Positions 8,630 to 48,155 of a stretch of DNA of 64,000 nt are shown in pieces (within the stretch, counting starts at the first letter, position 1; each line of letters starts with the position of its first letter). The position numbers were made by a program, and so were the translations under genes. The notes under the pieces were generated by a model. It ran no database searches. It worked only from the letters and a program-made list of their open reading frames with translations, and was not told where the DNA came from. This DNA is from Smithellaceae bacterium (GTDB lineage Bacteria; Desulfobacterota; Syntrophia; Syntrophales; Smithellaceae), in assembly GCA_028693285.1 (NCBI GenBank), contig JAQUVQ010000006.1, positions 8,039 to 72,038 on the forward strand, given 5' to 3'.

Positions 8630-9742
8630 ATGTTTTTCAAATACGATCGGCGCATCTTTCAGAATTTCGACAAGACGCTGTTTGCCCTGGTGATGTCGAT
8701 CTGCGCCATCGGCGTCGTCAATATCTATTCCACCGGCTTCAGCCTGGGCGAAAACGCGACACCCCTGTATTTAAAACAGATTCAATGGATTGCCTTCGGC
8801 CTGTTTTTCATGATGGTCGCCTTTTTAATCGATTACCGCTACTTCAACCGCGCGGCGTACGGCCTTTACGCGTTTTCGATGGCGTCGCTTGTCGCGGTCG
8901 CGCTGTTCGGCCACACGGCCAACGGGGCGCAGCGGTGGATCTCGTTCGGCGTTTTTTTATTCCAGCCTTCCGAGCTGATGAAAATCAGCATTATCCTCGC
9001 CCTGGCCCGGTATTTTGACGATCACAAGTCGCATGAGCCTTACCGCCTGAGGGAGCTCTTGGTTCCGTTCGGGATGGTGATGCTTCCCTGCGCTTTGATT
9101 TTGAAACAGCCGGATCTGGGGACGGCGCTGATGATCGTTCTCGTTTCCGCTTCCATCGTTCTGTTCATCGGAATGAACTGGAAATCCATCGTGATCGCCG
9201 TCGCGAGCGTTATGGTCCTGATGCCGCCGGCCTGGCATTTTTTAAAAGATTATCAGAAAAACCGCCTGCTGACGTTTCTGTCTCCCGAAAGCGACCCGCT
9301 GGGCACGGGATACCACATCATTCAGTCCATGATCGCGATCGGCTCCGGGGGGTTTCTGGGCAAGGGCTTTTTGAAGGGCTCCCAGACCCAGCTCAAGTTT
9401 CTGCCCGAACAGCAGACCGACTTCGTCTTCTCCGTGTTTGCCGAGGAGTGGGGATTTCTCGGCGGCCTGGCGCTGATGGTGATTTTTACGTCCCTCATTA
9501 TCTGGGGATTAAAAATTGCCTTGCATTCAAAAGATTTATTGGGCACGATACTGGCGTTCGGCATTACCGCGCTGATCGCCTGGCAGGTGCTGATCAATAT
9601 GGGAATGGTGCTGGGCGTCCTGCCGGTCGTCGGCATTCCGCTGCCGTTCATCAGCTACGGCGGTTCGGCGGTGGTTTCCCTGATGGCGGCGATCGGACTG
9701 CTGATGAATGTGAGCGTGCGCAGATTCATATTGCAGCGCTGA
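8630..9742 (+). CDS. rodA: SEDS-family peptidoglycan polymerase RodA
   Basis: 370-aa polytopic FtsW/RodA/SpoVE-type sequence (PSELMKI, GSGGFLGKGF...QLKFLPEQQTDFVFSVFAEEWGF). GGGGAGG RBS. Confidence 0.9.
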   Translation: MFFKYDRRIFQNFDKTLFALVMSICAIGVVNIYSTGFSLGENATPLYLKQIQWIAFGLFFMMVAFLIDYRYFNRAAYGLYAFSMASLVAVALFGHTANGAQRWISFGVFLFQPSELMKISIILALARYFDDHKSHEPYRLRELLVPFGMVMLPCALILKQPDLGTALMIVLVSASIVLFIGMNWKSIVIAVASVMVLMPPAWHFLKDYQKNRLLTFLSPESDPLGTGYHIIQSMIAIGSGGFLGKGFLKGSQTQLKFLPEQQTDFVFSVFAEEWGFLGGLALMVIFTSLIIWGLKIALHSKDLLGTILAFGITALIAWQVLINMGMVLGVLPVVGIPLPFISYGGSAVVSLMAAIGLLMNVSVRRFILQR

Positions 9743-9775
9743 GGATTTTCGTTTCGGGACCGCAAGGAGCAGGGC

Positions 9776-10153
9776 ATGTGGGAAAAAAAGAAACGTCTGG
9801 ACGACACCAAGGCTTTTTTGGGAAAGGGCGCCGAATTCATCGGGAAGCTGATTTTTACCGGGCACGTGCGCATTGACGGCGATTTCCAGGGGGAGATTTT
9901 CGGACAGGGGGCGGTGGATGTCGGGGAAGGCGCTTCGGTCAAGGCCGATATTGAAGTCGGCAGCATTTTTATCGCCGGCGAAGTCCAGGGCAACATCGCA
10001 GTAAAGGAAAAAATCAACATCCACTCCACGGGCAAACTTGCAGGCGACGTGAAGGCGCCGGTTTTCGTCATGGAGGAGGGGGCGGTTTTTGACGGCCAAT
10101 CGCGCATGAGCGAGGCGAAAGAGCAAAAAAGAATCGCTTTGGCAGGAAAATAA
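9776..10153 (+). CDS. Bactofilin (polymer-forming cytoskeletal protein, DUF583)
   Basis: 125 aa with repetitive beta-helix pattern: FTGHVRIDGDFQGEIFGQGAVDVGEGASVKADIEVGSIFIAGEVQGNIAVKEKINIHSTGKLAGDVKAP. AAGGAG RBS. Confidence 0.85.
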   Translation: MWEKKKRLDDTKAFLGKGAEFIGKLIFTGHVRIDGDFQGEIFGQGAVDVGEGASVKADIEVGSIFIAGEVQGNIAVKEKINIHSTGKLAGDVKAPVFVMEEGAVFDGQSRMSEAKEQKRIALAGK

Positions 10154-35986: not shown

Positions 35987-38653
35987 CTACGACGTCATTG
36001 AAGGGCGTTTGTTTTTGGCCAGCGCCTCCAGGGTGTTGGCGTCCGGTTCGGGGCGCGGAGCCGTCCAGGAAAAAACATCCAGAACATCCGGATTGAGCAG
36101 ATACTCCGGTTTTTTCCCCGCCAGAAGCATTCGAATCTGGTCCACGGCAATAGCCCCCTGATGCGCAGCGGTTTCGATGGTGTTGCCTCCCAGGTGCGGC
36201 GTGGCGATCACGTTGGGGTGGGAGACGATCGGGTCGTCCGATGCGGGAGGCTCGCTTCGGAAAACATCCAGCGCGGCTCCGGCGATGCGGCCCGATGTCA
36301 GCGCCTCCAGAAGGGCTGCTTCGTCCACAAGGGACGCGCGGGCGGTATTGACGAAGAAGGCTCCGGGCTTCATTTGATCAAAGGCTTTCCGGTTCATCAT
36401 TCCCTTCGTTGCCTCGATGGCCGGAGCGTGAAGACTGACGATGTCGCTTATGGCCAGCAGTTCATCGAGGGATGCTTTTTTCGCGCCCAGCAGAGAGCCT
36501 TCCCCGGCGGCGACCATCGGATCGTAAAAAACAGCGTTGGTTCCGAACCGCGCGAGGCGCGCCGCGACGCAGGCCCCGACATTGCCCAGCCCGATCAGTC
36601 CGACGGTTTTTCTCCAGAGCTCCTTCCCCTGGTATTTCAGATAGGCTTCTCCCATTTTTGCCATGTCGCCCGATTGGATCTGTCCGTGTTTCAGAAAGTC
36701 GAATGACCCGGGCATTTTGCGCGACAGCATCACCATCAGCGCGACGGTCAGGTCCGCGACGGCATCGGCGTTTCGGCCCGGCGTGTTGATGACGGGAATG
36801 CCGTAAGCGGTCGCGGCCGCGAGATCGACGTTGACGGCGTTTCCGCGGCAGGTGACGATGGCCTTCAGATCCCGAGCATCGCGAATGGCCGGAAAATCCA
36901 CCACGTCCATTTCGGTGATGAAGATTTGCGCGCCGGCGAGTGCCGCGGCCAGTTCCGGGCCTCCGTCATAGAGCTTCTGCTTTTCCCTCCATTGGGCGCA
37001 GGTTGCCTTTCCGATCGCTTCGAGTTCGCGAATCGCGGCTTCATCCATCGAAGCGGTGATGAAGATATTCGGCGAAAAAGACGGGTCCGCCGCCCTGCCC
37101 GCGGCGGGTGACGGCTCGAACAGGGAATTGATCAGCAGATTTCCGACGTGGGCGTCCGTTTCGGCTCGCCGGTCGAAAGCCTGCCGCCAGCCCGCATAAA
37201 AATTCCGGTATTTTTCCCCCGCCGCGTCCGGCTGATACCGGGTCAGGGCGGAGGCCGCTTTTTCAACCCCTGCCGCCGTATCGGCAAAGATGCCCGCTCC
37301 GACGCCCGCCAGAACGGCCGCTCCGACGGACGTCACTTCCGCGGTGCGCGGGACGAGGACGGGAGAATTCGTCACGTTGGAGACGATTTGCGAAAACAGC
37401 GGGCTTTGCGACATGCCTCCGGCGACCCGCAGGTCATTCATGTTCCTTCCGGAAACGGAGGCGAGCTGTTCGAGGTTGACGCGGACGGAAAAAGCGACCC
37501 CTTCTACCAGGGCGCGGGCGATGTGCCTGCGGCTTTGGGAAGCTTCCCCCGTGATCATGTGGGAAAAGGTCAGGTTGCCCACGGGGAAGCCCACGGTTCT
37601 TCCGTCGAACAGGGCGGTCCCGAACGTGGAATAGACATTGGAAGCGCCCGGAACGGATTTTTCCGCCTCCGCAAAGAGGCTCAAAGTCGTATCTGGAGAA
37701 TCCGGATAGAGAAGATTGGCAAACCAGTCGATGACGTCGCCCGTGACCAGGCCGTTGCTTTCCAGAACGTACTGTCCCGGAACGACATGCAGGCCGCTCC
37801 AGAGGCGTCCGGTTTTGTCCAGGACCAGCTCATTCGTCACCAGTTGCAGGGGCATGGTGGTCCCGGCGATGACGGCCGCTTCGTTGTCTTTTATGGCGCC
37901 CGCACCGAGCAGGCCGCACTGGGTGTCGGCGCCGCCCGCGGCCACGGGGATGCCGGGGACCAGCCCCAGCAGGTCGGCCGCCTGCCGGGTGAGGCTGCCG
38001 ATGAGCGCTCCGGAATCCACCGGCTCCGGAAAGAGCGACCGTGCCAGCCCCAGCGAATCGATGAGATCAAAGGCCCAGAGGCGCTTTTGCAGATCGAAAA
38101 GAAGCGTTTCCCCCGCCTGGGAACGTTCGGCGACGATTTTTCCCGACAGGATAAAGGTCAGCCAGTCCGTGACGGACAGCGCCGCTGCCGTCTGCCGAAA
38201 GAGATCGGGAGCGTTGTTTTTCATCCAGAGAAGGCGCGTTCCGAGAAACAGCGGAGTAGGCCAGTGCCCGGAGACGGCATGGACTTCGCTTCCCCGTTCC
38301 GCCCCCAGCATCATGCCCTCGCCCAGGGCGCGCGCGTCCCGGTTGGGCGCGGCCAGCAGGACGTTGTTTTGCGCATCCAGGGCCACGAGGGTGTTGCGCA
38401 TGCCGCCGACGGCGATGCCCGCGATCCGGTTCGGCTTCACTCCGGCCTTGGAAAGAACTTCGCGGGAGGCTTCGCCCAGTTTTGCGAGCAGGCCGTCCGT
38501 GTCGATTCGGGTGCCCAGTCCGCTGGTGCCGGGCGCGGCGGGATGCGTCCAGTTTCGCTTTGCCGATAAGGTTTTGCCCGTTTCCGGGTCCAGCAGAAGG
38601 CAGCGGCCGGAGCCTCCCCCCACATCAATGGCCATCAGATATTGCGTTTGCAT
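35987..38653 (-). CDS. Fusion protein: FGGY-family carbohydrate kinase (N, about 500 aa) + D-isomer-specific 2-hydroxyacid dehydrogenase (C, about 340 aa)
   Basis: Single uninterrupted 888-aa ORF. N-terminal half: LMAIDVGGGSGR, GGADTQCGLLGAG, RVAGGMSQSPLFSQIV (FGGY motifs). C-terminal half: GKTVGLIGLGNVGACVA (NAD site), FVNTARASLVDEAAL, AALDVF..EP, ATPHLGG. AAGGAG RBS. Confidence 0.85.
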   Translation of the reverse strand: MQTQYLMAIDVGGGSGRCLLLDPETGKTLSAKRNWTHPAAPGTSGLGTRIDTDGLLAKLGEASREVLSKAGVKPNRIAGIAVGGMRNTLVALDAQNNVLLAAPNRDARALGEGMMLGAERGSEVHAVSGHWPTPLFLGTRLLWMKNNAPDLFRQTAAALSVTDWLTFILSGKIVAERSQAGETLLFDLQKRLWAFDLIDSLGLARSLFPEPVDSGALIGSLTRQAADLLGLVPGIPVAAGGADTQCGLLGAGAIKDNEAAVIAGTTMPLQLVTNELVLDKTGRLWSGLHVVPGQYVLESNGLVTGDVIDWFANLLYPDSPDTTLSLFAEAEKSVPGASNVYSTFGTALFDGRTVGFPVGNLTFSHMITGEASQSRRHIARALVEGVAFSVRVNLEQLASVSGRNMNDLRVAGGMSQSPLFSQIVSNVTNSPVLVPRTAEVTSVGAAVLAGVGAGIFADTAAGVEKAASALTRYQPDAAGEKYRNFYAGWRQAFDRRAETDAHVGNLLINSLFEPSPAAGRAADPSFSPNIFITASMDEAAIRELEAIGKATCAQWREKQKLYDGGPELAAALAGAQIFITEMDVVDFPAIRDARDLKAIVTCRGNAVNVDLAAATAYGIPVINTPGRNADAVADLTVALMVMLSRKMPGSFDFLKHGQIQSGDMAKMGEAYLKYQGKELWRKTVGLIGLGNVGACVAARLARFGTNAVFYDPMVAAGEGSLLGAKKASLDELLAISDIVSLHAPAIEATKGMMNRKAFDQMKPGAFFVNTARASLVDEAALLEALTSGRIAGAALDVFRSEPPASDDPIVSHPNVIATPHLGGNTIETAAHQGAIAVDQIRMLLAGKKPEYLLNPDVLDVFSWTAPRPEPDANTLEALAKNKRPSMTS

Positions 38654-38825: not shown

Positions 38826-39788
38826 ATGGAAAAGGCAAACCTGCCGGAAACCAACTACGATGTGATCATTCTCGGCGGCGGGCCCGCCGGCTACACGGCC
38901 GGCATCTATGCCGCGCGCGCCGCGCTGAAAACGCTGCTGGTCGAAGGGGAGGGGACGGTCAGCCAGATTACCATCACCGACATGATCGAAAATTATCCAG
39001 GCATTCCCGACGGCATCGGCGGGTTCGAGCTGATGCAGCTTTTCAAGAAGCAGGCGCAGAAATTCGGCCTGGAGATTTTGCCCAAAGACGCGACCGGCGT
39101 CCGGAAAATTTTCGATGCGCCGGTGATCTGGGAAGCGACAGCCGGCGGCCGGACATTTACAGCTTTGAGCCTGATTGCCGCGACCGGCGCGATGTGGCGG
39201 AGCCTGGGCGTTCCGGGAGAAGCGCAGTTCGCGGGAAGAGGCGTTTCGTACTGCGCCACCTGCGACGGTCCTTTTTACCGCAACCGCACGGTGGTCGTGG
39301 TGGGCGGCGGCGATACCGCCATTCAGGAAGCGCTGTTTCTGACGCACTTTGCCGACAAAGTCATCGTGATTCACCGGCGCGACCGTTTGCGCGCGGCGGG
39401 AATGCTCCAAAACCGTGCCTTTGCCGAAAAGAAGATCGAATTTGTCTGGAATGCGACGGTCGAGGAAATTGCCGGCGCCGAATTCGTAACGGGCGTGAAG
39501 GTAAAAGACGTTCAGACGGGAAAGGTCAGTGAAATCGAGGCTGACGGCGCGTTTATTTTTGTCGGCCGCCTGCCCTACACGGACCTGTTCAAAGGCCTGG
39601 TGGCGATGGACAAAACGGGCTTTATCCTGACCGATGAAAATCTGCGGACCGACGCCCCCGGCATTTTCGCGGCGGGGGATTGCCGCGCCAAGCTGTTCCG
39701 CCAGGTGGTCACCGCCGCGGGCGACGGCGCCAACGCCGTGCACAGCGCGGAGCTGTATCTGGATGAAGTCAAGGGGCAGGTGTACTGA
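38826..39788 (+). CDS. trxB: Thioredoxin-disulfide reductase
   Basis: Internal start MEKANLPETNYDVIILGGGPAGYTAG. Redox motif CATCDG, second dinucleotide site VVVVGGGDTA, FAAGDC. Confidence 0.93.
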   Translation: MEKANLPETNYDVIILGGGPAGYTAGIYAARAALKTLLVEGEGTVSQITITDMIENYPGIPDGIGGFELMQLFKKQAQKFGLEILPKDATGVRKIFDAPVIWEATAGGRTFTALSLIAATGAMWRSLGVPGEAQFAGRGVSYCATCDGPFYRNRTVVVVGGGDTAIQEALFLTHFADKVIVIHRRDRLRAAGMLQNRAFAEKKIEFVWNATVEEIAGAEFVTGVKVKDVQTGKVSEIEADGAFIFVGRLPYTDLFKGLVAMDKTGFILTDENLRTDAPGIFAAGDCRAKLFRQVVTAAGDGANAVHSAELYLDEVKGQVY

Positions 39789-39868
39789 CCGGCGGCGGTT
39801 GTCATCCTTTCCCTGCCGGGTTCAAAGAGTTTCGACCGGATTCATACTCTTTAAAAAACGGAAATCAC

Positions 39869-40711
39869 ATGGAATCTTTTCTCAACCTCTGGCAGCACCT
39901 GCCATCGCACATCAGCCCCGTGCTTTTCAGCATCGGCTCTTTTCAGCTTCGCTACTACAGCCTCATGTATCTGGTGGCTTTTGCCGTGGTTTACGGTCTG
40001 TTTGCCTGCCGGATCAGACGGGGAGAGATTGCCTTCACGACGGAGGCCATGCAGGATTACATGGTCTGGGCGATGCTCGGCCTGATCGTGGGCGCGCGGC
40101 TGGGCTATGCGCTGTTTTACAATTTCTCCTACTACCTGTCCCACCCGCTGGAAATTATCCTGCCGTTCGACTTCTCCGACGGATTCCGTTTCGTGGGACT
40201 GAGCGGCATGTCCTACCACGGCGGCCTCATCGGCGTTTTGCTGGTCACGATTTACTTTTGCCGACGGCACAACATCCTCTGGTGGCGCTTCGGCGACTGG
40301 CTGTGCGCCGCGGCGCCGCTGGGGTATATGTTCGGCCGGATCGGCAATTTTCTAAACGGCGAACTGTGGGGCCGCGTCACGACCGTGCCGTGGGGCATGT
40401 TTTTTCCGCAGGACGCTACGGGAAACCTGCGGCATCCGTCCCAGCTTTACGAAGCCCTGTTCGAGGGGCTGTTTTTGTTTGTCGTTCTGTGGGGCATTCG
40501 CCGGCGCAACCCCTTTGACGGCTTCATGGTCGGCCTGTATATTTTCGGCTACGGCCTGGTTCGGTTTGTGATCGAGTTTTTCCGGGAGCCGGACGCGCAC
40601 CTGGGATTTGTCCTGGGATTCAACACCATGGGGCAGGTGCTGTGCATGCTGATGATGCTGGCGGGCGTCGGCGTGATCCTGTGGAGAAAACAGGCTTCTT
40701 CGCGCCTGTGA
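39869..40711 (+). CDS. lgt: Prolipoprotein diacylglyceryl transferase
   Basis: YSLMYLVAF, SYHGGLIG, GRIGNFLNGELWGR, HPSQLYEALFEG are Lgt signature regions. Confidence 0.9.
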   Translation: MESFLNLWQHLPSHISPVLFSIGSFQLRYYSLMYLVAFAVVYGLFACRIRRGEIAFTTEAMQDYMVWAMLGLIVGARLGYALFYNFSYYLSHPLEIILPFDFSDGFRFVGLSGMSYHGGLIGVLLVTIYFCRRHNILWWRFGDWLCAAAPLGYMFGRIGNFLNGELWGRVTTVPWGMFFPQDATGNLRHPSQLYEALFEGLFLFVVLWGIRRRNPFDGFMVGLYIFGYGLVRFVIEFFREPDAHLGFVLGFNTMGQVLCMLMMLAGVGVILWRKQASSRL

Positions 40712-40725
40712 ACCGGGAGGTGTTT

Positions 40726-42057
40726 ATGGCGAAAAATCTGGTGATTGTCGGCGGCGGCGCGGGCGGCGGCTCCGCGGCCGCGGAGGCGAAAAGAAACGAT
40801 CCGTCCCTGAACGTCACGATGCTGGAGCAGGGGAAGTTTGTCGCCTTTGCCGCCTGACCCATGCCCTATTACATCGGGGATGTAATTCAGGATCAAAACA
40901 AACTGATCGCCCGCACGCCGGAAAAATTCCGCGAGAGCGGCATTGACGTTCAGATTTCGGCCAGGGTGGAAGGCATCGATCCGGCCAGGGGTGAAGTTTC
41001 GCTTCAGGACGGGCGGATTTTCCCCTATGACGTTCTGGTGATGGCCACCGGCACCTCCGCGTTTGTGCCGGATATGCCGGGGCTTGACCTGCCGGGCGTG
41101 GTTTCCCTGCGCAGCCTGGAGGACGCCGTCCGCATCAAGACCTGGCTTCGGGAAAAAAATGCGAAGCGGGTCGTCACAATCGGCGGCGGCTTCATCGGCC
41201 TGGAAATGAGCGAGGCGCTCTCGGCCGCGGGCATTTCCACAACCATCATTCACAAGGATCCGCTTCCGGCCAACCGCTGGGATCCGGTCCTGTCGCAAAT
41301 GATGCTCGAAGAGCTTCAGGCGCAAGGTGTGAAATTTGTCGGAGGCGCGTCCGCTCAAGGCGTTGAAAAAGGAACCAGCGCGCCGCTGCGCGTTCTGACG
41401 GACCGGGGAGATTACGAAGGCGATCTGGTGCTTCTGGCCATCGGCGTTCGGCCTGATGCGAACCTGGCGCGGGCCACGGGTTTGAAAATCGGTACCACCG
41501 GCGCGATTGCCGTCAATTTTTCCCAGCAGACCTCCATCGAAAACATTTATGCGGCGGGCGACTGCTGCGAATCTTTTCATCGCGTCAGCCGCCGCTGGGT
41601 GAATGTTCCCCTGGGCGACATCGCCAACAAGCAGGGCCGCGTTGCGGGTCGCAACATCGGCGGCCGGCCCATGACGTTTGACGGCATCGTCGGCGCCCAG
41701 TCCTTCCGTCTGTTTTCGCTTCAATGCGCGGCCGCGGGGCTGTCGGAAAGGGAAGCCATCGCCGCCGGCTTCTCTCCGGCAAGTCATGTCGCCTGGGGAA
41801 GCGCGATGGCGCCCGCGCTGGGGATGAGAAAAATCGGCCTCAAGCTGACGGCCGACCGATCGACGGGCAGACTGCTGGGCGCGCAGGCGGTGGGGGCCGC
41901 CGGTGCGGTAGGCAGAATCAACGCGCTTTCCGTCGCACTCTGGGCGGGTATGGATCTGGATCAGGTAGGCTACCTGGACCTGGCCTACTCGCCGCCTTTC
42001 AGCCCGGCCTGGGATATCATCCATAACGCGGCCCAGGCGCTCGGCCGTTCATTGTAA
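40726..42057 (+). CDS. NADH oxidase / CoA-disulfide reductase-family flavoprotein, predicted selenoprotein (TGA 40855-40857 read as Sec at codon 44)
   Basis: ORFs 40642..40857 and 40861..42057 share one frame and are separated only by TGA and CCC. FAD motif VIVGGGAGGG. The TGA is in FVAFAA-U-PMPYYIG, aligned to the SFANC(G/A)LPYxIG active-site Cys. Second Rossmann VVTIGGGFIGLE, AAGDC, and a C-terminal dimerisation domain. Confidence 0.75.
40865..40891 (+). promoter_or_regulatory. Candidate bacterial SECIS hairpin
   Basis: CCT-ATTACATC-GGG-GATGTAAT-tc-AGG. The 8-bp perfect stem begins 10 nt after the TGA. The apical loop is all G, about 20 nt from the UGA. Confidence 0.55.
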
Positions 42058-42075
42058 GCGGGAGAATCGGATGTC

Positions 42076-43014
42076 ATGACCGTTTGGTGGATCTTCTTTG
42101 CGGTGTTCATTCTGGCGATGCTGGCGCTCGATCTGGGCGTCTTCAACCGGAAAGCCCACGTCATCCAAATGAAGGAAGCCATGCTCTGGACGGCCTTCTG
42201 GGTCTCGCTGGCCCTGTGTTTCGGAGCGGCAATCTACTTTCTGTACGGCCACGGAAAGGCCATCGAGTATGTGACCGCTTACCTGATCGAATACTCGCTG
42301 AGCATCGACAATCTCTTTGTCTTCATGCTGATCTTTCGCTACTTCAATGTTCCGCGCGCCTACGAGCACAAGGCGCTGTTCTGGGGAATTCTTCTGGCGC
42401 TGATCACGCGCGGCGTTTTCATCTTCGCGGGCGTCGCGCTGATCAGCCGCTTCCACTGGGTCATGTATATTTTCGGCGCCTTTCTGATTGTCACGGGCAT
42501 CAAGATGGCGCTGAACAAACAGACGGAAGTCCACCCCGACAAAAACATCGCGATCCGGCTTTTGCGCTGTGTCATGCCGGTTTCGAAAAACTTCTCCGGA
42601 GCGAAATTTTTTGTCGTCGAAGGCGGCATTCGTTACGCCACGCCGATGCTGGCCGTTTTGCTCGCCTTGGAGACGACCGACATTCTTTTCGCGATCGACT
42701 CGATTCCCGCCGTCCTGGCCATTTCCCGGGACCCCTTTATTGTGTACACGTCCAACGTTTTCGCGATTCTGGGCCTGCGGTCGCTGTTCTTCGCCATTTC
42801 CGGCCTGATGCGCCTGTTCCACCTTCTTCATTACGGCCTGGCGGCGATTCTCGCCTTTGTCGGCGTCAAAATGCTGATCGCGGATTTTTTCCACGTGCCG
42901 GTCGGAATTTCGCTTTTGATCATTGCTTCGATTCTGATTGCTTCGATTCTCTCCTCCATTCTCTGGCCGGAGAAAGAGGAGGGCGAGGTTCCCCCGGTAA
43001 CCATGAAGGAGTGA
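42076..43014 (+). CDS. terC: TerC-family integral membrane protein
   Basis: 312 aa polytopic. EYSLSIDNLFVF and DSIPAVLAI motifs typical of the TerC/Alx family. Confidence 0.9.
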   Translation: MTVWWIFFAVFILAMLALDLGVFNRKAHVIQMKEAMLWTAFWVSLALCFGAAIYFLYGHGKAIEYVTAYLIEYSLSIDNLFVFMLIFRYFNVPRAYEHKALFWGILLALITRGVFIFAGVALISRFHWVMYIFGAFLIVTGIKMALNKQTEVHPDKNIAIRLLRCVMPVSKNFSGAKFFVVEGGIRYATPMLAVLLALETTDILFAIDSIPAVLAISRDPFIVYTSNVFAILGLRSLFFAISGLMRLFHLLHYGLAAILAFVGVKMLIADFFHVPVGISLLIIASILIASILSSILWPEKEEGEVPPVTMKE

Positions 43015-43021
43015 GGACGGC

Positions 43022-43804
43022 ATGCTCTTCGACATTCCCCGCGCTTCTCAAAGCCGGTTGAAAAGTTGGGCGAAGCTTTCCGATGCGAAGTTTCGCCGCG
43101 CGGAAGGCCTGTTTCTGGCCGAAGGGGTGAAAGTTGTTGAAGAACTGCTGAAAAGCGGCCTTGAAGCGGAAGCCCTGCTCGTCCTGCCGGAAAAAATTTC
43201 CGTCTGGGAAAAAATCCTTCGTGAGGCGAAGAGCAGCGTTCCCGTATATCAATTGACGCGCCCGGAGTGGAAAAAACTGAGTCAGGACAGGGAGCCTGAA
43301 GGAGTGATAGCCGTTGTCCGCATCCCCCGGGAGCCTTCCTTTTTGTCTTTTCTCCAATCGTCCGGCGGCCATATTCTGATCCTTCATGAAATCAACAATC
43401 CCGGCAACCTGGGCGCGCTGATCCGCAGCGCCTGCTGGTTCGGCTTTTCCGGCGTTCTGCTGAGCTCCAACTCGGTGGACTGGACCAATCCCAAGGTTGT
43501 TCGCTCCTCGATGGGAGGTGTCTTTGCGCTGACGATTTTGTCCAATATCGACATCCCGGCTCTTTTGCCGGAAATCCGGCAGGAGTACATTCTTGTCGGC
43601 AGCGACCCGCACCGGGGCGTCGCGCCGCGAATACTAAAGAGAAAAGCGGCGCTTCTTCTGGGCAGCGAGAGCCACGGCCTGCCGGATTGCCTGCTGGGCG
43701 AGGTCGCTGAGCGCTGGCGGATTCCCGGCGGTGAAGGAGCCGAATCGCTCAGCCTTCCGCAGGCGGGGGCGATTATGATGTATAAAATAGTGGATAGTGG
43801 ATAG
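43022..43804 (+). CDS. TrmH/SpoU-family RNA 2'-O-methyltransferase
   Basis: N-terminal substrate-binding domain plus SPOUT motifs (NPGNLGALIRSA, LLLGSESHGL, IPGGEGAESLSLPQAGAIMMY). Confidence 0.85.
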   Translation: MLFDIPRASQSRLKSWAKLSDAKFRRAEGLFLAEGVKVVEELLKSGLEAEALLVLPEKISVWEKILREAKSSVPVYQLTRPEWKKLSQDREPEGVIAVVRIPREPSFLSFLQSSGGHILILHEINNPGNLGALIRSACWFGFSGVLLSSNSVDWTNPKVVRSSMGGVFALTILSNIDIPALLPEIRQEYILVGSDPHRGVAPRILKRKAALLLGSESHGLPDCLLGEVAERWRIPGGEGAESLSLPQAGAIMMYKIVDSG

Positions 43805-43991
43805 TGAATGGTGGATGGTAAAAAGACAGGCGAGTGGCGATGGGAAAAAGAAGTGCAGGGAACGGTCGCGACCGTTCCCTACGGGTCATGGGTTATAGGT
43901 CATGGGCGATAGGGAAAAGCTCATGGCTCGTAGTAAAAAGCGACGAGCGACGAGTGACTAGGAAATCGTAGGGCGGATCTTTAGACCTGCC
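43790..43991 (+). repeat. Modular heptad-periodic intergenic repeat, copy A: GTGGATR tract + 24-bp palindrome + heptamer words + GTAGGGCGG hairpin
   Basis: GTGGATA GTGGATA GTGAATG GTGGATG at 43790-43817. Perfect palindrome AGGGAACGGTCGCGACCGTTCCCT at 43857-43880. ATGGGTT ATAGGTC ATGGGCG ATAGGGA ... CGAGCGA CGAGTGA. GTAGGGCGGATCTTTAGACCTGCC at 43968-43991. Confidence 0.75.
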
Positions 43992-44014
43992 GTTGAGAAG
44001 GGTGAGGGGAGAAA

Positions 44015-44332
44015 ATGACTGGATTCATTCAGGTGATGGTGACGACGGAAACGAAGGAGCAGGCCCGGGGCATTGCGGAGAGCCTGGTCGGAGAAAAACT
44101 GGCCGCCTGCGTCCAGATTCTCGACCCGGTCGAAAGCACGTACCGCTGGAAGGGCGAAGTGGAGAGCGCCCGGGAATGCCTGTGCCTGATCAAAACCCGC
44201 GAGCGCCTGTTTGGAAAAGTCGAAGCCGCGATAAAGGCGCTGCATTTCTACGAGACTCCTGAAATCATTGCGGTTCCCTTTGTAAACGGCAGCGGGGAGT
44301 ATCTGCGGTGGCTCGACGAATCGATTTTGTAA
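44015..44332 (+). CDS. cutA: Divalent-cation tolerance protein CutA
   Basis: 105 aa. LVGEKLAACVQI...STYRWKGEVE...E..L.IKT and YE.PEI are the CutA1 pattern. Confidence 0.85.
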   Translation: MTGFIQVMVTTETKEQARGIAESLVGEKLAACVQILDPVESTYRWKGEVESARECLCLIKTRERLFGKVEAAIKALHFYETPEIIAVPFVNGSGEYLRWLDESIL

Positions 44333-44399
44333 ATTTTTTCGTGCAATAATCTCAGGTTTGTTTTAAGTGAATCTCCGTGAAAAAATTCAAGGAGACATT

Positions 44400-46448
44400 A
44401 TGCCGGACAAAAACGAGCTGGAAAAGAAATGCATTGATACGATAAGGTTTTTGGCGGCGGACGCCGTTGAGAAGGCCAAATCCGGCCACCCGGGCATGGC
44501 GCTCGGCGCTGCGGCGACGGCCTTCACGCTGTGGACCAAGCACCTGAAGCATAATCCTGAAAATCCCGGCTGGCCGGACCGGGACCGTTTTGTTCTGTCG
44601 GCCGGGCATGCCTCGATGCTGCTCTACGCGCTTTTGCACCTGACCGGCTATGATTTGACGCTCGCCGACATTAAAAATTTCCGCCAGTGGGGCAGCCGCA
44701 CGCCGGGTCACCCCGAGTACCGGCATGTGCCGGGCGTGGAAGTCACCACCGGACCGCTGGGGCAGGGACTGGCCAACGCCGTCGGCATGGCCGCGGCCGA
44801 AGCGCATCTCGCCTTCCGTTTCAACCGCGAGGGCCGGCAGATCATCAATCATTACACCTACGTCATGGCCAGCGACGGAGATTTGATGGAAGGAGTCGCC
44901 GCGGAATCCTGCGCGCTGGCGGGCCACCTGCGTCTGGGAAAGCTCATTGTGCTGTATGACGACAACCAGGTGTCTCTGGCCGGTTCCACCGGCCTTGCCT
45001 TTACCGAAAACATCGAGATGCGCTTCAAATCTTACGGCTGGCAGGTGCAGAAAGTCAAAGACGGAAATGACGTGGCCGCCATCGACCGGGCCATTAAAAA
45101 AGCAAAAAAAGAAAAGGAAAAACCGTCGCTCATCTGCGTGCGGACCACGATCGGCTGCGGCGCCCCGCGCAAGCAGGGCTTGTGCGATTCGCACGGGTCT
45201 CCCCTCGGAGAAAAGGAGTTGGCCGGCGCCAAGGAAGCCTGCGCCTGGCCCACGGAGCAGACGTTTCATGTTTCCGGAGAGGTCGCGAAATATTTCCGCA
45301 GGGCGGTTTCCCGCGGGAGAAAGTACGAGCACGCCTGGCGGGAGACGCTGGCCGACCCCGCGCTGGCCGCCGAACTGGAAAGAGCGCTTTCGGGGGAGTT
45401 GCCCGCGGACTGGGACGCGGAGCTTGCCGAATTTCCGGCCGGATCGGCCGACATGGCCACGCGCAAGGCTTCGGAAGCCGTGATGCAGAAGATCGCTGCG
45501 AAGGTTCCGGAGCTGGCCGGGGGGTCGGCGGATCTCAATCCCTCAACCTGCACCTGGCTTACGGGCATGGGGGATTTTCAAAGCCCGGCGCAAAGCAGGG
45601 AAGGTCTGCACGGCATGGTGGGCGGCGCCTGGGATTATTCGGGGCGCAATATCCATTACGGCGTGCGCGAGCACGCGATGGGCGCCATCTCGGTGGGGCT
45701 GGCGCTGCACGGCGGCGTGATCCCCTATACGGCAACCTTTTTGACCTTTGCCGACTATATGCGCCCGCCCATGCGGCTGGCCGCTTTAATGGGGCTGCGC
45801 GTGATTTTCGTCTTCACGCATGACAGCGTCGGCGTGGGCGAAGACGGCCCGACGCATCAGCCGGTCGAGCAGATCATGAATTTGCGCCAGATTCCCAACA
45901 TGACGGTGATAAGGCCGGCGGACGCCAACGAAACGCTGGAGGCCTGGCGGCTGGCGCTTGCCAACACGACCGGGCCGACGTCGCTGATTTTCAGCCGTCA
46001 GAACCTGCCGCTTCTGGATCGCTCCGTATGTGCGCCCGCCTCCTGCACGGGCCGGGGCGGTTATATCCTGTGGGAGTCGTCTGTCCTCGAGCCGAACATC
46101 ATCCTGATGGCCACCGGTTCGGAAGTTGTCCTGGCGCTGGAAGCGGGACGCAGACTGGCGCAAGAAGGAACCCGCGTCCGCGTTGTGTCGCTGCCCAGCT
46201 GGGAAATTTACGACCGCCAGCCCAAGGAATACCGGGATTCGGTCCTGCCGCCGAGGATCAGTGCGCGCCTGGCCGTGGAGGCCGGGATCCGGCTGGGATG
46301 GGAGCATTATGTCGGGCTTTCGGGAAAGATCATCGGCATGGAGAGCTTCGGCGCGTCCGCGCCCGGACCGGTGCTCTATGAGAAATTCGGGTTCACGTCC
46401 GACGGCATTGTCGCGGCGGCCAAGGAATTGCTGACCATTCGCGGATAA
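44400..46448 (+). CDS. tkt: Transketolase
   Basis: [24 protein letters not shown], and [19 protein letters not shown] (TPP/pyrimidine-binding signatures). Confidence 0.95.
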
Positions 46449-46460
46449 AGGAGCAAATGA

Positions 46461-48155
46461 GTGCAGACCGCCGGGATTTCTTTTTTACTGGGCCCCTACC
46501 AGAACTACGTCGCCAACGCGCTGGATAAAATGAGCCGCGGCAACATCGCCGCGCGCATCTGGGCCAACGACTTTCATGTCTGGAAGCCGTCGCCCGCGGA
46601 GATCGCCAACCGGATGGGGTGGCTCCACGCGCCCGTGGAGACGTCCGCCCATGTCGGCGAGATCCGCGCCTCCGTGGAGCCCTTCACCAGCGGCGGCATC
46701 AGCGACGTTGTCCTTCTGGGCATGGGCGGATCGAGCCTGTCGGCGGAAGTGTTCAGCAGCGTCTTCGGCAGCGCGCCGGGTTTTCCGAGGCTGCAGATTC
46801 TGGACACCACCGATCCGGTGGTCATTCGGCGCGCGGCGCGGGGGCTCAACCTCGACAAAACCCTTTTCATCGTTTCCTCCAAGTCCGGCAGGACGCTGGA
46901 GATCCGCTCGCTTTTCCATTATTTTTACAATCTGGCCGACCGGACGCCGGGGGTTTCGGCCAACGAGCACTTCATGTTCATCACCGACGAGGGCAGCCCG
47001 ATGCTGACCCAGGCGTGGCAGCTCCAGCTTCCGTACGTTTTTTCCAATAATCCCAACATCGGCGGACGCTTTGCGGCTCTGTCGCTCGTGGGCATCATTC
47101 CCGCCGCGCTGATCGGCGTTTCCATTGAAAAGCTGCTCCAGAGCGCGATGGCCGCGGCCAACCGGGAGAAGGCGGATTTCTTTTCCGGCCGGGGCGGCTC
47201 CACGGGATTTCTGCTGGGCGCCGCTCTGGGCACGCTGGCGCAGTACGGCCGGGACAAGCTTACGCTGCTGCTTCCGCCGCCCTGGAAGCCTTTCGGCGAC
47301 TGGCTGGAACAGCTCCTCGCGGAAAGCCTCGGCAAGGAAGGCAAGGGCATTTTGCCGGTTCTGAACGAACCGCCGCTGGACGTGGACCGGTACGGGAACG
47401 ACCGCGTTTTTGTCGCGTTCCATCATGACGACGACGAGTGGGCGTCGAGGATTTCGGAGCTGGCGGGCGCCGGGCATCCCGTCTTGAAAATCCGGATCAA
47501 CGGCTTTTACGATCTGGGCGGCCAGATGTTTTTGTGGGAAATGGCGACGGCCGTCGCCGCGCACATCATGGGCATCAATCCCTTCGACCAGCCGGATGTC
47601 GAGGCGACCAAAACGCATACGAACCGGATGATCGAGGAATTCCGGAATAACAAAGAATGGCCGGCGCCCAGGCCCGCTCTGTCGCTCACCGCCTGCGAGG
47701 TTTACGGTGATGTTTCCGCCCGGACTCTTTCTTCCGCCCTGACCAGGTTTCTCGCGCAGGCCGGCGAGGGAGCGTACGGGGGATTGCAGGTCTATCTCAG
47801 CCCCTCTCCCGCGATCGACGACGCGCTGCAGAAACTGCGTCTGGCGATTTCCAGCCGGTACAAGATAGCCGTGACGACCGGCTACGGCCCGCGCTATCTG
47901 CATTCGGTGGGCCAGCTTCACAAAGGCGACGCGGGCCGCGGCCTGTTTATCCAGATGACCGGCCCGAACAAATCGGACATCGGCATTCCCGACGAGCTGG
48001 GCAAACCCGGCTCGTCTCTGACCTTCGGGGAGCTCAAGGCCGCGCAGGCCGAAGCGGACCGCCAGGCGCTTCTGGACAAAGGGCGGAAAATCCTTCGCAT
48101 CCACTGGAAAAAAGACGCGGCGGGCGGAATCCGGACTCTGGCCGGAAGTCTTTAG
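46461..48155 (+). CDS. pgi: Glucose-6-phosphate isomerase (SIS-domain PGI of the type found fused to transaldolase in some bacteria)
   Basis: GTG start 7 nt after AAAGGAG. VVLLGMGGSSL, LFIVSSKSGRTLE, GGRFAALSLVG. 564 aa. Confidence 0.8.
   Translation: MQTAGISFLLGPYQNYVANALDKMSRGNIAARIWANDFHVWKPSPAEIANRMGWLHAPVETSAHVGEIRASVEPFTSGGISDVVLLGMGGSSLSAEVFSSVFGSAPGFPRLQILDTTDPVVIRRAARGLNLDKTLFIVSSKSGRTLEIRSLFHYFYNLADRTPGVSANEHFMFITDEGSPMLTQAWQLQLPYVFSNNPNIGGRFAALSLVGIIPAALIGVSIEKLLQSAMAAANREKADFFSGRGGSTGFLLGAALGTLAQYGRDKLTLLLPPPWKPFGDWLEQLLAESLGKEGKGILPVLNEPPLDVDRYGNDRVFVAFHHDDDEWASRISELAGAGHPVLKIRINGFYDLGGQMFLWEMATAVAAHIMGINPFDQPDVEATKTHTNRMIEEFRNNKEWPAPRPALSLTACEVYGDVSARTLSSALTRFLAQAGEGAYGGLQVYLSPSPAIDDALQKLRLAISSRYKIAVTTGYGPRYLHSVGQLHKGDAGRGLFIQMTGPNKSDIGIPDELGKPGSSLTFGELKAAQAEADRQALLDKGRKILRIHWKKDAAGGIRTLAGSL

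Follow-up and report, generated by a model that had tools for sequence, protein, structure and literature searches.

Is the in-frame TGA that splits an oxidoreductase gene of a Smithellaceae bacterium a genuine stop, or is it a codon for selenocysteine (Sec)? The question is raised by a stretch of 64,000 nucleotides of contig JAQUVQ010000006.1 (assembly GCA_028693285.1), referred to below as the window, in which two open reading frames (ORFs), 40642..40857 and 40861..42057, belong to one and the same reading frame and meet in the context FVAFAA-[TGA]-PMPYYIGD. The original prediction, made from the letters of the window alone, was that they form a single 443-residue gene, split by the TGA and preceded by a GGGAGG 5 nt before its ATG. 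Direct reading confirms this: the frame that opens at ATG 40726 comprises 444 codons up to a TAA at 42055-42057, and the TGA, at codon 44, is its sole internal stop. We conclude that UGA 40855 is very probably decoded as Sec, and that 40726-42057 is a single selenoprotein gene (here called nox), whose conceptual translation around Sec44 reads FVAFAA-U-PMPYYIGDVIQDQNK. Decoding as Sec had already been proposed in the original prediction, and it is now supported by the alignment of the TGA with a catalytic Cys column, by the occurrence of either TGA or a Cys codon in orthologs, and by a hairpin that is kept only where the codon is TGA.

Public gene calls split the locus, in every public assembly checked, into a 43-aa ORF and a 398-aa 'FAD-dependent oxidoreductase', which is the kind of truncated gene that automatic annotation had been expected to report. 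The annotated 398-aa product lacks both the FAD motif and the catalytic residue, and no Sec annotation was present in any public source sampled. A search of 5.8 billion proteins for relatives returned two populations, with names pointing to Smithellaceae, Smithella and Syntrophaceae metagenome-assembled genomes (MAGs). The first population consists of 398-aa proteins of 81–100% identity that all start with MPYYIGD, and this is precisely what a gene caller produces downstream of a TGA. The second consists of 443-aa proteins of 70–79% identity that all read ...YASCPTPYYIGD....

The read-through protein was searched with Cys in place of the TGA. It contains the Pfam domains Pyr_redox_2 (1.3e-55), Pyr_redox and Pyr_redox_dim, and aligns end to end with the NADH oxidase (Nox) of Thermus thermophilus (6ruz; E 5.7e-89, residues 1-437) and with the Pyrococcus CoA-disulfide reductases (CoADR) 5l1n/4fx9/3kd9 (E ~1e-79). 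Query position 44 coincides with Cys44 of 6ruz (YGACGLPY) and with Cys48 of 5l1n/4fx9 (HAPCGIPY in 5l1n), i.e. the TGA falls on the catalytic Cys when the protein is set against the family comprising Nox, NADH peroxidase (Npx) and CoADR, the first check that had been proposed for it. The redox motif x-x-A-C/U-x-x-P-Y, found at about residue 42-48 in this family, is present with its C/U at residue 44, and the FAD-binding motif is indeed encoded before the TGA, at residues 6-23. The best NCBIfam matches are with CoADR, namely PRK09564 and the equivalogs NF007123/TIGR03385, but all below threshold (368.9 bits versus a cut-off of 458, and 368.4 versus 578.8), and the H2O-forming NADH oxidase equivalog NF046103 gives 212.8 bits versus a cut-off of 600. 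Because these equivalog scores are below cut-off, we do not class the protein as a CoADR proper; judged by its sequence it is an FAD-dependent pyridine nucleotide-disulfide oxidoreductase of the Nox/Npx/CoADR group, placed at the level of the group.

Orthologous loci were identified by a scan with one genome per GTDB species, which gave 80 loci (L001-L080), almost all of them from Syntrophales. The active-site codon is informative in 79 of these, the remaining locus (L073) being cut there. Of these loci, 61 have TGA, 12 have TGT and five have TGC, and a further locus (L059) is also a Cys form, which brings the Cys forms to 18. No codon other than TGA, TGT or TGC was found at this column among the 79 informative loci. 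Like the comparison of orthologs, all the other checks proposed with the original prediction that could be carried out gave results in its favour. The 44 upstream codons are unbroken in every locus that covers them, down to about 55% amino-acid identity, and the single stop in the 61 TGA-form loci is always TGA and always at the Cys column, with both flanks conserved. The gene order trxR-lgt-nox(-terC-spoU-tkt-pgi) is common to TGA and TGY forms, and therefore the Cys forms are orthologs from the same locus and not paralogs.

The second main line of evidence is a hairpin directly after the UGA, a candidate selenocysteine insertion sequence (SECIS). It starts 10 nt past the UGA (+13..+31), with a distance of 18 nt from UGA to loop, and was compared in 57 distinct TGA-form sequences and in the Cys forms (17 for entropy, 16 for pair counts). 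The block TATTACATCGGNGATGTAAT is nearly invariant in the TGA-form sequences. Third-codon positions in the stem have an entropy of 0–0.21 bits in Sec forms versus 0.32–1.87 bits in Cys forms, while in the same Sec forms the third position in the loop (1.78 bits) and the first third position past the stem (1.44 bits) are free to vary. Standard pairs occupy 456 of the 456 cells of the Sec-form comparison (57 sequences x 8-bp stem), and none of 500 shuffles reached these values, whereas 76.6% of the stem cells are paired in Cys forms. Two pairs have undergone a compensatory double change: the one that is C40872-G40882 in the window has become U-A in L021, and the other has gone from U-A to C-G in L047 and L053. 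RNAalifold independently returns the identical structure of 8 bp with a 3-nt loop, and when the hairpin is forced its mean dG is -5.24 kcal/mol in Sec forms versus -1.05 kcal/mol in Cys forms. The residue following the Asp is always Val (GTA) in Sec forms, or else Ile (ATA) with a compensating change; Cys forms may have M, I, L, V or T there. Taken over all genomes compared, this pattern indicates that selection acts on the hairpin as RNA only in genes with UGA, and that the RNA constraint also shapes the protein sequence.

The hairpin of the original prediction is therefore retained in its core at 40868-40886, with its 10-nt spacer, and its conservation, compensatory changes included, is confined to orthologs that have retained the TGA. 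Two of its details did not survive. The apical loop, described as all G, is GGN across orthologs and happens to be GGG in the window gene. The proposed extension of the lower stem by CCT/AGG was rejected: its outer pairs are found just as regularly in Cys forms (16/16 and 14/16), and the middle one is present in 34 of 57 Sec forms versus 8 of 16 Cys forms. Since the extension is no better conserved in Sec than in Cys forms, we consider it a by-product of coding and not part of the SECIS.

A midpoint-rooted neighbour-joining tree combined with Fitch parsimony has Sec at its root and at least four switches between Sec and Cys, and Sec is, as far as the tree can tell, apparently the ancestral state at the nox locus. 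The only Sec form inside the main Cys clade is L021 (PHBJ01000005.1, 9986-10042), from Deltaproteobacteria bacterium HGW-Deltaproteobacteria-13. Its hairpin carries the compensatory U-A pair mentioned above (TATTATATC...GATATAAT), and 10 of the 16 Cys forms share U-A at that place. This looks like a surviving Sec lineage among repeated losses of Sec to Cys, or like a reversion. Two loci carry labels from outside the Syntrophales. One, labelled Candidatus Aminicenantes (L027, CAVSZS010000013.1), lies on a 600-kb contig with the full Smithellaceae-type gene order and neighbours of 61–87% identity, which suggests that it is mis-binned or mislabelled. The other, labelled Acidobacteriota (L071, CAYYTC010000002.1), has a Sec gene of 56% identity that lacks the usual gene neighbourhood, and could reflect horizontal transfer or mis-binning.

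Other columns of the protein are also of interest. At codons 280-281 (41563-41568, TGC TGC, in AAGDCCESFH), Cys280 is invariant in 74 of 74 full-length Syntrophales orthologs (57 Sec and 17 Cys) and Cys281 is mostly conserved among them; 6ruz and 5l1n have Val-Ala at these positions. Cys280 adjoins the FAD-binding GD motif, and could be a second redox cysteine, or a resolving one, peculiar to the clade. At codon 34 (40825-40827), 56 of the 57 Sec forms have Glu and 15 of the 17 Cys forms have Gln. Apart from column 44, no other column separates the two forms, and the split at residue 34 is probably a clade effect. Residue 34 belongs to the N-terminal Rossmann unit, which is the first of the protein and binds FAD, near the place expected for an acidic residue that binds the FAD ribose.

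Several observations weigh against the decoding of UGA 40855 as Sec. First, as described above, the protein scores under the curated cut-offs of both the CoADR and the H2O-forming Nox equivalogs. Secondly, the hairpin is weak (-5.2 kcal/mol), its shuffle z-scores of -0.42 and -1.12 (in 61- and 101-nt folds) are not significant, and the minimum-free-energy fold is another structure, with the hairpin having a pair probability of 0.011 in the 101-nt context. Folding energy alone is neither for nor against the hairpin, and it is the comparison across genomes that decides. The helix of the minimum-free-energy fold, CAU.CCC / GGG.AUG, was itself considered and rejected, as it pairs in 71% of cells, the same as in shuffles, and has no covariation. 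Thirdly, no Rfam SECIS match was obtained at the gathering score in the whole window or at E<=10 around the site. Bacterial SECIS elements are heterogeneous (PMC12013277), and for that reason the lack of a match is weak counter-evidence. Finally, no tRNA-Sec was found by ARAGORN in the 64-kb window or in 81 sequences from the related loci (1.23 Mb, <1% of each genome), and no selA, selB or selD was found in the window and these 1.23 Mb by tblastn with E. coli SelA, SelB and SelD sequences. This negative result carries little weight, because less than 1% of each genome was covered and the protein probes were E. coli sequences. A Smithella composite genome carries selA/B/C/D, like all genomes that contain selC* (see below), according to PMC5389517. 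For Syntrophus aciditrophicus, which belongs to the same order, 19 selenoproteins are listed, and one of them is a SelD that itself contains Sec (PMC1794560).

The best surviving alternative to Sec keeps the role of the hairpin and changes the amino acid. According to it, the UGA is recoded via the same hairpin, but the residue is partly or mainly Cys, donated by a tRNA-Cys that mimics tRNA-Sec (selC*), possibly with the aid of a second SelB (SelB*). Genes for selC* have been reported in deltaproteobacteria and in the Smithella composite genome, and the same study showed that selC* with a UCA anticodon can translate an opal Sec codon as Cys in E. coli (Mukai et al., PMC5389517). In addition, Cys is evidently acceptable at this column, as it is encoded by 18 orthologs. 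However, the anticodon of the Smithella selC* is absent from the main text of that paper, which also credits selC* genomes with a full Sec apparatus (PMC5389517), and neither the window nor the 1.23 Mb of related loci yielded a selC*. Moreover, UGA and SECIS have persisted together in 61 species even though a one-base change to TGY is tolerated, which argues that Sec itself is selected, and we regard the insertion of Cys in place of Sec as highly unlikely. One may also imagine dual decoding in Smithellaceae, with Sec inserted when Se is available and Cys inserted via selC* when it is not, and with Cys280 possibly serving as the resolving partner of residue 44. Such an arrangement is unlikely as well; if true, one gene would make a Sec or a Cys isoform, and the role of Cys280 would depart from the single-cysteine chemistry of the family.

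A true stop at the TGA would leave either a pseudogene or a split gene that encodes a 43-aa peptide and, from a start of its own, a 398-aa protein. Public gene callers annotate the locus exactly in this way, and the window does have an ATG two codons past the TGA. The 398-aa product, however, would be devoid of the FAD-binding GxGxxG motif and of the catalytic residue, no Shine-Dalgarno site comparable to GGGAGG precedes ATG 40861 (upstream sequence TTTGCCGCCTGACCC), and in 13 TGA-form orthologs Met 40861 is replaced by Thr or Ile after U-P; for these reasons a separate start at ATG 40861 can be excluded. The 44 upstream codons and the downstream frame are both conserved in 61 species, and the RNA-level conservation tracks the TGA. 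All this makes termination at codon 44 extremely improbable. It is scarcely credible, too, that the UGA is read through by SECIS-independent leakage, with a near-cognate tRNA (Trp or Cys) decoding UGA-C, or that UGA has been reassigned genome-wide. UGA-C is a weak termination context, and a C directly follows the UGA in every sequence, but this C opens a conserved Pro codon and is also present in Cys forms, and leakage would leave the Sec-form-specific covarying hairpin unexplained. Genome-wide reassignment is excluded because 15 of the 42 long ORFs of the window terminate at TGA, trxR and lgt among them. Finally, an error of sequencing or assembly for TGC/TGT, although only one base away from a Cys codon and conceivable in MAG-derived sequence, has a negligible likelihood, since the TGA recurs in 61 species-level genomes, co-occurs with a TGA-form-specific hairpin, and has in effect been independently resequenced, in that at least four independent assemblies, one from ENA and three of them NCBI MAGs, show the identical 398-aa protein behind a 43-aa ORF called as a gene of its own. 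The identical split gene was read on 23 contigs and is listed in 92 blocks of the sequence collection; GCA_028683505.1, GCA_028698715.1 and GCA_019136075.1 are among the assemblies with this exact gene. Ortholog conservation and independent assemblies together exclude both sequencing error and a pseudogene, and leave the decoding of UGA 40855 as Sec as the preferred reading.

The features of the putative selenoprotein gene and of its immediate neighbours are listed in Table 1.

Table 1. Features of the predicted selenoprotein gene nox and its neighbours in the 64,000-nucleotide window
Feature	Position	Strand	Details and basis
Thioredoxin-reductase-like gene (trxR)	38826..39788	+	320 aa, CATC motif; Pfam Pyr_redox_2, public gene call
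lgt, prolipoprotein diacylglyceryl transferase	39869..40711	+	Pfam LGT 2.6e-68; ordinary stop TGA 40709-40711
Shine-Dalgarno-like GGGAGG	40715..40720	+	5-nt spacer before ATG 40726; direct reading
Predicted selenoprotein CDS (nox)	40726..42057	+	443 residues, putative Sec at residue 44, TAA stop; translation, Pfam, PDB alignment
FAD dinucleotide-binding motif VIVGGGAGGGSAAAEAKR	40741..40794	+	residues 6-23, before the TGA; kept in 78/78 loci covering the region
In-frame TGA, predicted Sec codon 44	40855..40857	+	catalytic-Cys column by PDB alignment and ortholog codons
Core of candidate SECIS hairpin	40868..40886	+	5' arm ATTACATC 40868-40875, loop GGG 40876-40878, 3' arm GATGTAAT 40879-40886
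Second dinucleotide-binding motif IGGGFIGLE, for NAD(P)H	41179..41205	+	residues 152-160; inside Pyr_redox match, residues 148-219
TerC-family membrane protein (terC)	42076..43014	+	Pfam TerC 6.9e-50; starts 19 nt past the stop of the predicted selenoprotein gene

The gene had been described as lying in a redox neighbourhood, after trxB and lgt, and a thioredoxin-reductase-like gene with a CATC motif, followed by lgt, is indeed found there. In 48 Sec-form and 15 Cys-form sequences this trxR-like gene keeps its place in the gene order, no more than 3.5 kb away from nox. Downstream of nox the window encodes TerC, a SpoU-type methyltransferase, CutA1, transketolase and PGI, and the order trxR-like, lgt, nox, terC, spoU, (cutA1), tkt, pgi (window 38826-48155) is kept in most Syntrophales loci, in Sec and Cys forms alike. 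In most loci about 20 nt separate the nox stop from the start of terC, and this points to probable co-transcription of the two genes. On the other side of trxR lies a gene (35987-38653, minus strand) for an 888-aa protein in which an FGGY carbohydrate kinase, with both its N- and C-terminal domains, is fused to a D-isomer-specific 2-hydroxyacid dehydrogenase, and this fusion gene adjoins trxR in close relatives too.

No other convincing TGA-split gene turned up when the window was scanned for such genes. A gene for a RodA/FtsW-like membrane protein (8630-9742, plus strand) ends at TGA 9740-9742 and is followed by a 137-codon ORF in the same frame, which by eye resembles a bactofilin; the two together span 8630-10153. 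This TGA was rejected as a Sec site, as the ORF that follows has its own Met start and appears to be independent, a chance neighbour in the same frame.

We propose the following sequence of events, based on the established bacterial Sec pathway (PMC9312934). When the ribosome is at UGA 40855, the hairpin would be located just outside the mRNA entry channel. A ribosome with UGA in its A site covers the next ~10–12 nt, and with the ribosome in this position the upstream-competing pairing of the minimum-free-energy fold should be unable to form. The apical GG-containing loop would then bind SelB-GTP-Sec-tRNA(Sec), and Sec would be delivered in competition with RF2. In the 443-residue FAD enzyme produced in this way, NAD(P)H would reduce FAD, and FAD would in turn reduce the oxidised Sec44 centre. 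If Sec44 behaves like Cys42-48 of its relatives Nox, Npx and CoADR, it could cycle between a selenolate and an oxidised form, either a selenenic acid or an adduct in which Se is bonded to the sulfur of CoA or of a persulfide. Candidate substrates would be CoA disulfide or persulfide, polysulfide, O2 or peroxide, and the conserved trxR-lgt-nox-terC context together with the anaerobic host suggests a role in thiol/oxidative stress.

NADH oxidase/CoADR (COG0446) is a catalogued family of bacterial selenoproteins (PMC1794560, PMC9312934), which bears out the suspicion in the original prediction that the idea is not new at the family level. The Sec form was first listed for Geobacter metallireducens, with isolated further cases in the Olavius delta-1 symbiont and in GOS marine metagenomes (PMC1794560, PMC9312934, PMC1976440, PMC2398784). 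The gene described here shares with these cases the family, a single Sec without CxxU/UxxC, a deltaproteobacterial host and habitual mis-annotation; the comparison with the Sec-Nox of G. metallireducens (WP_011365774.1) is at the level of the family. Sec-CoADR/Nox is rare in the surveys consulted, which do not report it from Syntrophales, whereas here Sec is the majority state of the trxR-lgt-nox-terC locus, in 61 Syntrophales species. The 19 selenoproteins listed for S. aciditrophicus do not include a Sec-CoADR/Nox (PMC1794560).

The Cys-type homologs of known structure include, besides T. thermophilus 6ruz and the Pyrococcus CoADR/polysulfide reductases 5l1n/4fx9/3kd9 (of which 5l1n/4fx9 are from P. 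horikoshii), the NADH peroxidase of Enterococcus (1npx/1joa) and the CoADR of S. aureus (1yqz). Their homology to the window protein is full-length (E 5.7e-89 to 3.6e-47), and they share with it the position of the redox residue, both dinucleotide-binding motifs and the dimerisation domain. The window protein differs from them in the predicted Sec at its redox centre, and in the extra invariant Cys280 (GDC) where they have Val. Mammalian thioredoxin reductase belongs to the same flavoprotein superfamily and likewise uses Sec in redox catalysis. Its Sec is located in a C-terminal GCUG extension and is decoded via a eukaryotic SECIS in the 3'-UTR, whereas the Sec proposed here would replace the N-terminal flavin-proximal Cys and depend on an in-frame bacterial hairpin.

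Bacterial SECIS elements are defined as a stem-loop immediately 3' of the UGA (PMC9312934). The hairpin described here resembles the E. coli fdhF-type SECIS in being such a stem-loop within the coding region. The spacing of the minimal fdhF SECIS is ~11 nt, compared to 10 nt here, and the UGA-to-loop distance of 18 nt falls within the range of 16–37 nt of the bSECISearch model. G residues of the apical loop are the usual contact of SelB. Compared to fdhF-type elements the hairpin is short and AU-rich (8 bp, -5.2 kcal/mol) with a nominal 3-nt GGN loop, and it has no bulged U, no conserved lower stem and no Rfam family.

The nox gene is a further member of a known Sec family, and represents neither a new mechanism nor a new selenoprotein family. 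For annotation, it implies the correction of a split-gene error that recurs in the 61 Syntrophales species-representative loci with TGA. Its SECIS appears to be minimal and clean (8 bp with GGN, a 10-nt spacer, frozen codons and compensatory changes), and could be a test case for predictors that miss weak AU-rich elements. If the UGA is decoded as we propose, a widespread and apparently ancestral Sec enzyme would be added to the selenoproteome of the syntrophic Smithellaceae/Syntrophales, and a single locus that has changed between Sec and Cys at least four times would offer a natural series useful for asking when Sec is worth its cost.

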